Source of the DNA: Eledone cirrhosa
Taxonomy: Eukaryota
Direction: 5' to 3'
Assembly: GCA_964016885.1 (NCBI GenBank)
Contig: OZ024741.1
Span: forward strand, 345,526,001 to 345,590,000
DNA length: 64,000 nucleotides
Shown here: in pieces, positions 61,030 through 62,790 of the stretch
Layout of the letters: each line of letters begins with the position of its first letter
Position numbering within the stretch: position 1 is the stretch's first letter
Position numbers and translations under genes: made by a program
The notes under the pieces: model-generated
What the model was told of the DNA's origin: nothing
Databases searched by the model: none
Seen by the model: only the letters and a program-made list of their open reading frames with translations

Positions 61030-61398
61030 AAAGAAGAGATGAAATCGAAAATGCAACTGAAGTCTTATTTAAAAAAAAAATATATATATTTATTTGGTTC
61101 CTTTACCGGTTTCGCAGTTCTTCTGCTTTTCAAAAGGTGAGTTGAGATGGAGGGTCTGTGGTTTTTCTCACAGATGTGAGAAAAACCACAGACCCTCCAT
61201 CTCAACTCACCTTTTGAAAAGCAGAAGAACTGCGAAACCGGTAAAGGAACCAAATAAATATATATATATTAAAAAAAAATAAAACTTCAGTTGCATTTTC
61301 GATTTCATCTCTTTTTCTTTATACTTTCACTCGTGTAGGACACCGGTTATTTTTCATTTTATAAAAAAAAAAAAAAAAAAAAAACCTGACTTTCTAAT
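61030..61398. mobile_element. Fold-back palindromic element with hammerhead motifs, copy 1
   Basis: Centre CTCACA-GA-TGTGAG (loop 61173-61174); arms ~140 bp; longer right tail; within (TA)n. Confidence 0.85.
61210..61247 (+). ncRNA. Minimal type I hammerhead candidate, U3-A8 core variant (also 61100-61137 minus, 62571-62608 minus, 62687-62724 plus)
   Basis: CCTT-TTGAAAA-GCAG-AAGAA-CTGC-GAAA-CCGG-TA-AAGG: 4-bp stem I, 4-bp stem II, palindromic loop III, GUA triplet. Confidence 0.65.
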
Positions 61399-61561
61399 AT
61401 ATATATATATATATATATATATATATATATATATATATATATGTGTGTGTGTATATATATATATGTGTGTATGTATGTATGTACGTTTGTGTGTGTGTGT
61501 ATATATCTATGTGTGTATGTATGTATGTACGTTTGTATGTTTGTATATATATATACATATA

Positions 61562-62144
61562 TGTATCCCAGTGCAACCTGTCTCATGGTCGGGTCGTTGG
61601 CGACTAAACTGACAACCCCACCAAGGTTTCTTGGTGAGGAGGGTGACTTTGGACATCCTGCAGGACTAAAAACAAAACCTATCAAAGGGCAAAGGAGCTC
61701 TTAAGAGTCAATGGCCATCCAAAATCACCGGGAGAGATGACCCATTAGCCTTTGTCAAGGCAGAATTCTAGGAGAAGGAAAACTCTGATATAACACCTGC
61801 AACTCTGATGGTATCCAATGATGTTGACTTGTTCTTCTTTTTGGTAAATAACATCTTGGTTAAGAGAGTGGGACTGGCTTTGTGCAGTGCCTTTGCTCAC
61901 TATAAAAGCTTCACGGCACAGGCATTGCTTTATATCTGGAGATCTTTCTGCACTTGTCGTTACATGGAACCATGGGCCCAGCACTATGTGTCAATAATTG
62001 TCACAGGTATAGTGTTTGTACCAGAGTTTTCAAGTCGCTGGCTGGACTAAAAAGTCATATTCGTTCAGCGCATCGGTAGGCGTTCTCCTAGATGGATATA
62101 AAGTATTAGCCGTACTCGAAAAGAAAACGAGTTGGCAGCCACCA
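61562..62144 (+). mobile_element. RTE-derived bipartite element, copy 3
   Basis: Reverse complement of 19780-20360 with scattered substitutions. Confidence 0.75.
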
Positions 62145-62432
62145 TATATATATATATATATATATATATATATATATATATATATATATATATATATATA
62201 TATATATATAGAGAGATATATATATATATATATATATATATAGATATATATATATATATATATATATAATATATATATATATAAATAATATATATATGGA
62301 TATCTCTGTACACACATATATATATATTATGAACAGGTAGATATTTAAATTATTTTTTAATTTATTTAAAGGATTGTTTAATGTTTGTTTGTTCTGCTCA
62401 TAAATTTTATATATATATATATATATATATAT

Positions 62433-62790
62433 ATTAGAAAGTGAGGTTTTTTTTACAAAATGAAAAATAACCGAGGTGTCCTACACGAGTGAAAGTATAA
62501 AGAAAAAGGGATGAAATCGAAAATGCAACTGGAGTCTTATTTTAAAAAAAATATATATATTTATTTGGTTCCTTTACCGGTTTCGCAGTTCTTCTGCTTT
62601 TCAAAAGGTGAGTTGAGATGGAGTTGAGATGGAGGGTCTGTGGTTTTTCTCAGTGAGAAAAACCACAGACCCTCCATCTCAACTCACCTTTTGAAAAGCA
62701 GAAGAACTGCGAAACCGGTAAAGGAACCAAATAAATATATACATTTAAAAAAAAAATAAGACTCCAGTTGCATTTTCGATTTCATCCCTT
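62433..62790. mobile_element. Fold-back palindromic element with hammerhead motifs, copy 2 (opposite orientation)
   Basis: Centre CTCA-G-TGAG (62653); longer left tail matches the reverse complement of 61310-61398; 10-bp tandem duplication in the left arm. Confidence 0.85.

Follow-up and report, generated by a model that had tools for sequence, protein, structure and literature searches.

Near the end of the window, by which we mean the whole 64,000-nt stretch of the Eledone cirrhosa genome analysed here, two near-perfect palindromes carry the same 38-nt motif in each of their arms. The question raised by this locus is what the palindromes are and whether they act as ribozymes. A preliminary description of the sequence had proposed a family of non-autonomous fold-back elements, mobilised by the enzymes of Penelope-like elements (PLEs) and built around a minimal hammerhead with a compensatory U3-A8 core. 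Direct location in the window confirms its starting point: four identical 38-mers, spread over two palindromes with centres of 1-2 nt. The features of the two insertions, termed A and B, are listed below, with F1 designating the family to which they belong.

61025-61172, minus strand: insertion A, inverted short arm; F1 pLTR end without tail, flanked by (TA)n
61100-61137, minus strand: the same hammerhead motif in the inverted arm of A
61171-61182, plus strand: region of the 5'-end cluster of F1 arms, where 22 of 40 F1 arms end
61175-61397, plus strand: insertion A, main arm; F1 pLTR end with tail, then (TA)n; 97% to the parent pLTR in locus L033
61210-61247, plus strand: minimal type I hammerhead motif in the main arm of A (cleavage is a prediction)
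61320-61397, plus strand: PLE 'tail', in one arm of A only
62434-62652, minus strand: tailed main arm of insertion B, bordered by (TA)n on the outside; orientation opposite to A
62571-62608, minus strand: hammerhead motif in the main arm of B
62654-62790, plus strand: tailless short arm of insertion B, abutting unrelated sequence
62687-62724, plus strand: hammerhead motif in the short arm of B

Palindrome A consists of a 2-nt centre between arms 61025-61172 and 61175-61319, which are identical at 140 of 148 aligned bases. Palindrome B has a 1-nt centre between arms 62434-62652 and 62654-62790 (130 of 139 identical), and its left arm carries an 11-nt duplication. The true element ends lie further out than first described, A running to 61397 and B starting at 62434. 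The inverted arms are therefore real, as had been claimed, but each element is asymmetric, one arm running on as a tail; the tail of A exceeds the F1 norm of about 66 nt through a poly(A) expansion. The reported setting in (TA)n holds for the flanks of A and for the outer side of the main arm of B, but not for the right arm of B, which ends in other sequence. Between A and B, positions 61570-62140 hold about 570 nt of non-simple sequence, bounded by microsatellites and with no match to F1 or to its two sister families, F2 and F3.

Structurally, the motif in the main arm of A is made up of the following parts, all on the plus strand.

61210-61247: stem I CCUU/AAGG and stem II GCAG/CUGC
61214, 61219, 61234 and 61235: core positions U3, A8, G12 and A13
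61237-61242: stem III palindrome ACCGGU, followed by A17 at 61243; predicted cut at 61243/61244

The minimal-hammerhead core (N3-U-G-A-N-N8-A...G-A-A-A...U-H, with a Watson-Crick pair between positions 3 and 8) is present in F1 and F3 with U3-A8 as that pair, and F2 deviates from it at position 13. In a predicted cofold of two monomers, stem II forms in each and the palindromic stem III provides an ACCGGU duplex able to serve as the dimer helix (-20.3 kcal/mol). The folding energy of the 38-mer alone is no better than that of shuffles (z -0.94), and none of the z-scores of four monomer stretches is significant. A narrow Rfam scan of 61190-61270 gave zero hammerhead matches up to E 10, and a scan of the whole window gave only hairpin/miRNA noise among the 150 matches listed of 328. 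Since neither the energy nor Rfam singles out the motif, support for a hammerhead comes from covariation and context. Judged by these sequence comparisons, which are set out below, the 38-mer is a hammerhead of the PLE minimal type, with the compensatory U3-A8 pair and the palindromic stem III proposed at the outset. The palindromes as ribozyme units fare differently: RNA through palindrome A is predicted to fold into a hairpin of -228 kcal/mol that buries the motif. Locked in this way, the palindromes themselves would not be active ribozyme units, and any cleavage would likely belong to the RNA of the parent element. U3-A8 hammerheads have been reported in nature (PMC3088659). In a mutational scan of a type III hammerhead, the published results describe rescue at positions 3-8 by the G-C swap only, other double mutants remaining low (PMC9901934). 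Minimal hammerheads of PLEs are described as cleaving poorly in vitro, dimers included.

Exact copies of the 38-mer number 6,009 in the 3.0-Gb source genome and 0 in the reversed-pattern control, so the motif is not a chance occurrence. Core variants were then counted genome-wide with the ACCGGT palindrome held fixed in the pattern, and the counts are copies of few families, not independent events. U3-A8 motifs occur 32,816 times (control 68), the mismatched U3.G8 and C3.A8 forms 175 (control 64) and 215 (control 46) times, and the canonical C3-G8 with GAAA 99 times (control 5). Most of the mismatched motifs listed are sporadic mutants, derived from F1-F3 or from older C3-G8 families. The descriptor search for copy number that the preliminary description had suggested thus yields 32,816 U3-A8 motifs against 99 canonical ones sharing the palindrome, in agreement with its expectation that standard CUGANGA searches would miss this core. 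Most of the 99 canonical matches belong to a further family with canonical core and ACCGGT (e.g. L113-L132), and older canonical families (L147, L148, L152) resemble F3 in stem II. The option that F1-like C3-G8 copies (L145, L146, L149, L150) preserve an ancestral canonical state was discarded, as they are junction artefacts or single double mutants in about the number expected by chance. At G000:C1:348863669-348911675, six F1 motifs with a shared U3C change and a spacing of about 9.6 kb form a tandem segmental array.

To look beyond the source genome, a relaxed descriptor was applied to 82 PLE loci of other hosts (347 kb), a set of more distant relatives from metagenome and genome contigs from which the closest outgroups of F1-F3 are absent. 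These loci contain 33 motifs (reversed control 2; ten shuffles 0-1), namely 25 with C3-G8, 6 with U3-A8 in 5 loci, and 2 mismatched. Positions 3 and 8 are paired in 31 of the 33 and switch together between C-G and U-A. On an RT tree of 30 rows, comprising 27 foreign loci with a paired motif and F1-F3, with L248 (only mismatched hit) left out, the 3-8 state changes six times, and F1-F3 group as one U3-A8 clade (100/99).

Covariation in stems I and II, which together with a G10.1-C11.1 pair is expected of the minimal type, was looked for among the genomic copies and appears as compensatory states across subfamilies and families, with mismatched intermediates in the older F1 copies (F1-old). Pair 4 of stem I is A-U or A.G in older F1 copies and C-G in young ones; pair 1 of stem II is U.U or G.U in older copies versus G-C; and pair 4 of stem II is U.C in older F1 versus G-C, and U-A in F2 and F3. 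Older F1 copies lie 11% from their majority, compared to 4% for the young. The F1-old subfamily was amplified with its mismatched stems (673 exact motifs), and because it spread in this state, as F2 did with C13, selection on catalysis looks weak. DNA contigs from four runs cover the F1 motif; one of them, from another organism, differs in stem II and at G12, too slim a basis for a comparison.

For the parent element, we fetched 10 loci in which motifs sit kilobases apart. The parent frame of 770 amino acids comprises RVT_1 (E 5e-07) and GIY-YIG (E 7.6e-05) domains and ends upstream of the motif; both Pfam domains exceed the cut-off in L032:3717-6026. The overall layout is pLTR-ORF1-(RT, CX4CxxC, GIY-YIG)-3'UTR-pLTR, as seen in L033, where ORF1, RT/EN and the 3'UTR lie between two motif-bearing pLTRs with a motif-to-motif distance of 4,915 nt. 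A coding region between direct hammerhead-bearing pLTRs is likewise present in L104 and L101. An RT followed by a C-terminal GIY-YIG endonuclease is the arrangement that defines EN+ PLEs. A C-x4-C-x2-C linker separates RT and endonuclease in F1, F2 and F3, and a linker of the form CX2-5CxxC together with a bias for (TA)n targets characterises Neptune/Nematis. The linker motif, by which we placed the element, suggests a Neptune/Nematis-type clade; the RT tree holds unnamed relatives. The arms in the window are 92-98% identical to the pLTR of this autonomous parent, with one local alignment across the duplication in B dropping to 88%. F2 and F3 share the two-frame layout of F1, and the RT/EN proteins of F1 and F2 are 56% identical. 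A search with the F2 protein returned 631 relatives at E <= 1e-50, the best 120 of 631 at 42-59% identity.

In all three families the RT frame lacks a Met ahead of its first conserved motif, and its overlap with ORF1 is in the -1 frame. The overlap (L033:6850-6840 on the minus strand, L104, L108, L109, L101) carries a conserved U-UUU-UUA-G, translated as N-H-F-L-D in ORF1, and the same heptamer stands in the -1 frame in three foreign PLE loci (L207, L210, L215). It reads as a putative -1 frameshift site or splice acceptor; no structure 3' of it is predicted in F2 and F3. A PLE ORF1 separable by frameshift is mentioned in the legend to Fig. 1 of PMC8557442. A candidate intron also surrounds the motif, with a donor-like site near 61177 and an acceptor-like site near 61338, and the donor-like bases are not retained in older F2 copies. 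Two other, distant RT/GIY-YIG-like PLE frames (L032:8673-9998 with L033:39-620, and L112:3-1820) adjoin F1 copies, which suggests that several PLE families are nested in the same (TA)n tracts.

The related cores noted earlier at 2581 and about 52967 are both present in the window, and they belong to the sister families F2 and F3, respectively.

2339-2782, plus strand: F2 head-to-head insertion, short arm 2339-2540, long arm 2541-2782
2581 (plus) and 2500 (minus): U3 of the F2 motif and its inverted mate within 2339-2782; U3-A8, C13 at 2603, 3-bp A-U stem I
51438-53252, plus strand: 5'-truncated F3 copy, with an inverted RT fragment at 51438-52009 and a decayed endonuclease end from 52042
52967: U3-A8 motif of the F3 pLTR, with a U10.1-U11.1 mismatch

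The G(A/C)AA ambiguity attached to the core at 2581 does not reflect copy noise, as C13 is fixed in 99 of the first 100 listed F2 matches. GCAA replaces GAAA in 12,288 of the 32,816 motifs (control 7), and C13 is kept in three F2 subfamilies 11-15% apart. F2 is the youngest family, with 0.5% median divergence and intact frames. The change is derived, given A13 in both F1 and F3 and the absence of C13 from all 33 foreign motifs. Changes at A13 strongly lower hammerhead activity. Either the ribozyme is dispensable in vivo, as it is in vitro, or C13 is tolerated. The consensus core against which candidates were screened out in PMC3088659 includes A13, and we found no report of a natural A13C variant in literature coverage that leaves aside Lunse et al. 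2017, Hammann et al. 2012 and figures (e.g. Perreault Figs S6-S7). In one locus (L175, G000:C3:257296000-257304000), two F2 arms carry many sense-strand T-to-C changes, a pattern like that expected if a fold-back RNA had undergone ADAR-type hyper-editing on its antisense strand before being retrotransposed.

The ends of its copies suggest how the parent gives rise to fold-backs. The first 30 loci represent 22 insertions, and 17 of these 22 have an inverted partner (hand tally). Mobilisation by PLE enzymes and inverted insertion, both proposed at the outset, hold. Fourteen of the 17 combine a long with a short end and three a long with an unclassified end; long+long and short+short combinations number zero. 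Long arms end about 138 nt and short arms about 72 nt past the motif. The result is an inverted 5'-truncated copy with a tail at one end, as in EN+ PLEs, and inverted truncated copies, tails, (TA)n targets and junction palindromes are all described for PLEs (PMC8557442, PMC3846280). In L032 the inverted pLTR arm measures about 1 kb against 4 kb for the main copy. From such unequal arms we infer two separately primed cDNAs, not one hairpin, and on their account simple hairpin self-priming was rejected as the sole origin. Of 40 F1 arms, 22 have their 5' end in a cluster 32-43 nt ahead of U3; of 33 F2 arms, 13 do so at 34-44 nt. Both arms of a pair enter these counts, so that the values are non-independent. 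This cluster, about 40 nt before the core, is likely the RNA 5' end.

Taken together, it is very probable that the palindromes are 5'-truncated head-to-head ends of an autonomous Neptune/Nematis-type PLE inserted in (TA)n. The 38-mer would then be the U3-A8 minimal ribozyme of the pLTR. As a dimer it likely cuts only a small share of the parent RNA, and no activity is predicted for it within the palindromes. We postulate that the RNA starts about 40 nt 5' of the core and that the endonuclease opens a (TA)n target by nicking each strand. On the 3' side of the motif, at distances of about 138 and 72 nt, two internal sites would serve as RT starts, and both cDNAs would be joined head to head. cDNAs that both extend to the RNA 5' end would yield an almost perfect palindrome of some 280 bp, and longer templates would give unequal arms. 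Stem III would be completed by ACCGGU pairing, either between two RNAs or between the two pLTRs of a single tandem RNA, and the minority of RNAs cleaved after A17 would give copies that start at 61244.

Copy ends at the predicted cut bear on this last step. The 24 nt on the 3' side of the cut have 13,461 copies, of which 11,064 (82%) also retain the 10 nt on its 5' side, so that uncut RNA is the main template. Twenty listed copies lacking those 10 nt comprise 16 point mutants, one copy turning at ACCGGT, and three starting exactly at the cut. A junction search returned 275 raw matches, the first 100 listed of which correspond to 52 sites. Seventeen of these 52 sampled sites fall exactly at the predicted cut (after 61243, the bond named in the preliminary description), while offsets +2, +1, -1 and -2 account for 8, 9, 3 and 9, the next six positions for 2, and the far limit for 4. 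Neighbouring classes are raised too (k=1: 9; k=4: 9). Seven of the eight junctions at +2 are fold-backs, most of them turning at a GG-AA-CC hairpin. For non-TA junctions at offsets +1 to -2, 11 of 17 lie at the cut (p 6e-4 against 1/4) and 2, 2 and 2 at the others; after removal of five local duplications (L358, L398, L396 twice, L378), the hand count is 9 of 12. The corresponding F2 cut, which sits in a 5-A run, accounts for 4 of 12 F2 junctions. As far as genomic copies can tell, the peak probably preserves a trace of cleavage in vivo that affected few of the RNAs; RT stalling at the ACCGGU duplex or A/TA microhomology is another possible source.

Stalling is central to a rival reading, which we consider possible but doubtful. 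Here the motif would be a near-dead hammerhead relic, kept as a structure (for RNA dimerisation through ACCGGU, or as a protein-binding site), and the 5'-end peak would reflect RT stalling at stem III. The success of F2, with its 12,288 motifs, C13, 3-bp A-U stem I, young age and intact frames, is in line with such a relic, as is the predominance of uncut templates. ACCGGU is moreover identical across F1-F3 though their proteins are 56% identical, and in the experiments reported in PMC11167929 ribozyme mutants left in vitro insertion unimpaired. The 3-8 pair, however, stays Watson-Crick in 31 of 33 foreign motifs through six changes, which a simple duplex does not need, and the junction peak, at the predicted scissile bond, has the width of a single base (11 versus 2, 2 and 2).

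We also offer a more specific proposal, which we hold to be rather unlikely. The pLTR hammerhead would primarily be an RNA dimerisation device acting via stem III, and an RT dimer would copy both RNAs at a double nick, giving the long+short head-to-head insertions. Cleavage would be a side reaction fossilised at the cut, and the C13 family a natural core mutant that keeps pairing and transposes at full speed. Should this be true, the C13 family makes the function of PLE hammerheads directly testable.

The original proposal of a separate non-autonomous family, retrozyme- or MITE-like, transcribed, self-cleaving and copied as a unit by PLE enzymes, is improbable. A very high copy number speaks for it, and so do recurrent spacings: 12 of 26 F1 pairs are spaced 107-113, and 10 of 28 F2 pairs exactly 109, turning at a GATC palindrome. 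PLE termini are also described as able to mobilise sequence in trans (PMC3846280). However, 52 of the first 100 listed exact matches form 26 minus/plus pairs closer than 6 kb, and their spacings run continuously from 76 to 4,203 nt and include RT sequence. Turning points and arm lengths vary from copy to copy, and the centres of A and B themselves differ. The 92-98% identity of the arms to the autonomous parent, the tail that distinguishes the two ends, and the predicted burial of both motifs in the fold-back RNA argue against it as well. Among the first 100 listed matches just two same-strand pairs lie closer than 6 kb, with separations of 3.1 and 4.9 kb, and no head-to-tail array of short hammerhead monomers, the hallmark of retrozymes, is found among these matches. 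Nor do the copies show the fixed length and matching terminal inverted repeats of MITEs or foldback elements, given the differing tail, spacings and centres. One last alternative, in which read fold-backs produced the palindromes during assembly or the motif is a chance look-alike, is hardly credible. The z-score is weak and Rfam gives no hit, but the arms differ at several sites, the ends are distinct and rule-bound, the position of the motif behind the RT frame is constant across three families here and foreign PLE loci, and controls of 0-2 face 33 foreign motifs.

The autonomous-PLE reading places the locus among known systems. The U3-A8 variant is not new but already on record in Schistosoma PLEs: about 1,300 U3-A8 motifs, with opposite-strand pairs 100-700 bp apart, were published in 2014 (PMC4209133). 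The Cercyon PLEs of Schistosoma mansoni (Cervera and de la Pena 2014, PMC4209133) share with F1-F3 a minimal type I hammerhead in the pLTR, U3-A8, a palindromic stem III, and mostly truncated copies in such opposite-strand pairs. In comparison with those heterogeneous motifs, the 32,816 here are homogeneous, their stem II has 4 bp without an extra base after A9, and the palindrome is a hexamer (PMC4209133). In Fig. S3 of the Schistosoma study, 56 of 56 representatives have GAAA, which its descriptor required, whereas F2 has GCAA (PMC4209133).

Common features with the Neptune/Nematis EN+ PLEs, as described by Craig et al. 2021 (PMC8557442), are RT, CX2-5CxxC linker, GIY-YIG, pLTRs, the inverted 5'-truncated copy, the one-end tail, (TA)n targets and an ORF1 separable by frameshift; the tail of about 66 nt in F1 compares with a usual 30-40 nt there. 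In the Poseidon element of Anolis carolinensis (PAc), two internal RT start sites define the tail in vitro (Frangieh et al. 2024, PMC11167929). A tail from two RT starts and the cutting of both target strands would be shared with PAc, and we also count as shared its protein-assisted hammerhead, unneeded for in vitro insertion. PAc differs from F1-F3 in its single ORF, which starts inside the hammerhead, and in its C3-G8 core; the PAc study found no RNA ends at the cut, whereas here genomic 5' ends pile up at the predicted one (PMC11167929).

The Penelope elements of Adineta vaga (Arkhipova et al. 2013, PMC3846280) resemble the copies here in their head-to-head inverted pLTRs, junction palindromes and optional tail. 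Unlike the families here, they have low copy numbers and belong to the Penelope/Poseidon clade, and their authors favour self-priming, whereas the unequal arms here favour two primed cDNAs (PMC3846280). Non-LTR retrozymes, as presented in bioRxiv 10.64898/2026.07.22.740005, are likewise non-coding, hammerhead-bearing and related to PLE pLTRs. They are head-to-tail tandem repeats, whereas the copies here are head-to-head and grade into ORF-bearing copies.

The U3-A8 variant, the PLE context and the inverted layout are already published, and as the discovery of a U3-A8 hammerhead family the locus carries small weight. New are the pile-up of copy ends at the predicted cut and a sister family, about 12,000 copies strong, in which one core base is altered. 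The locus has its value as a data set for asking what PLE hammerheads do: a single genome carries more than 32,000 U3-A8 motifs in three related, recently active families, with stem pairs broken and restored across subfamilies. The 5'-end pile-up would be indirect evidence of in vivo cleavage where the Anolis RNA-seq found none. In practical terms, CUGANGA/GAAA descriptors miss most hammerheads of the PLE minimal type in the source genome.

Two further observations concern hammerheads and PLE genes outside F1-F3. At 28348 on the minus strand (about 28270-28490), between (TA)n runs, the window holds a canonical C3-G8 hammerhead-like motif in which stem I has 8 bp and stem III is palindromic; it probably marks the terminus of a further PLE family and also occurs beside L013. 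PLE RT/GIY-YIG genes occur in bacterial genome bins as well (L286, L287, L288; P0026, P0061, P0064, P0072, P0082), most likely as host or eukaryote contamination, and L286-L288 also bear hammerhead motifs.
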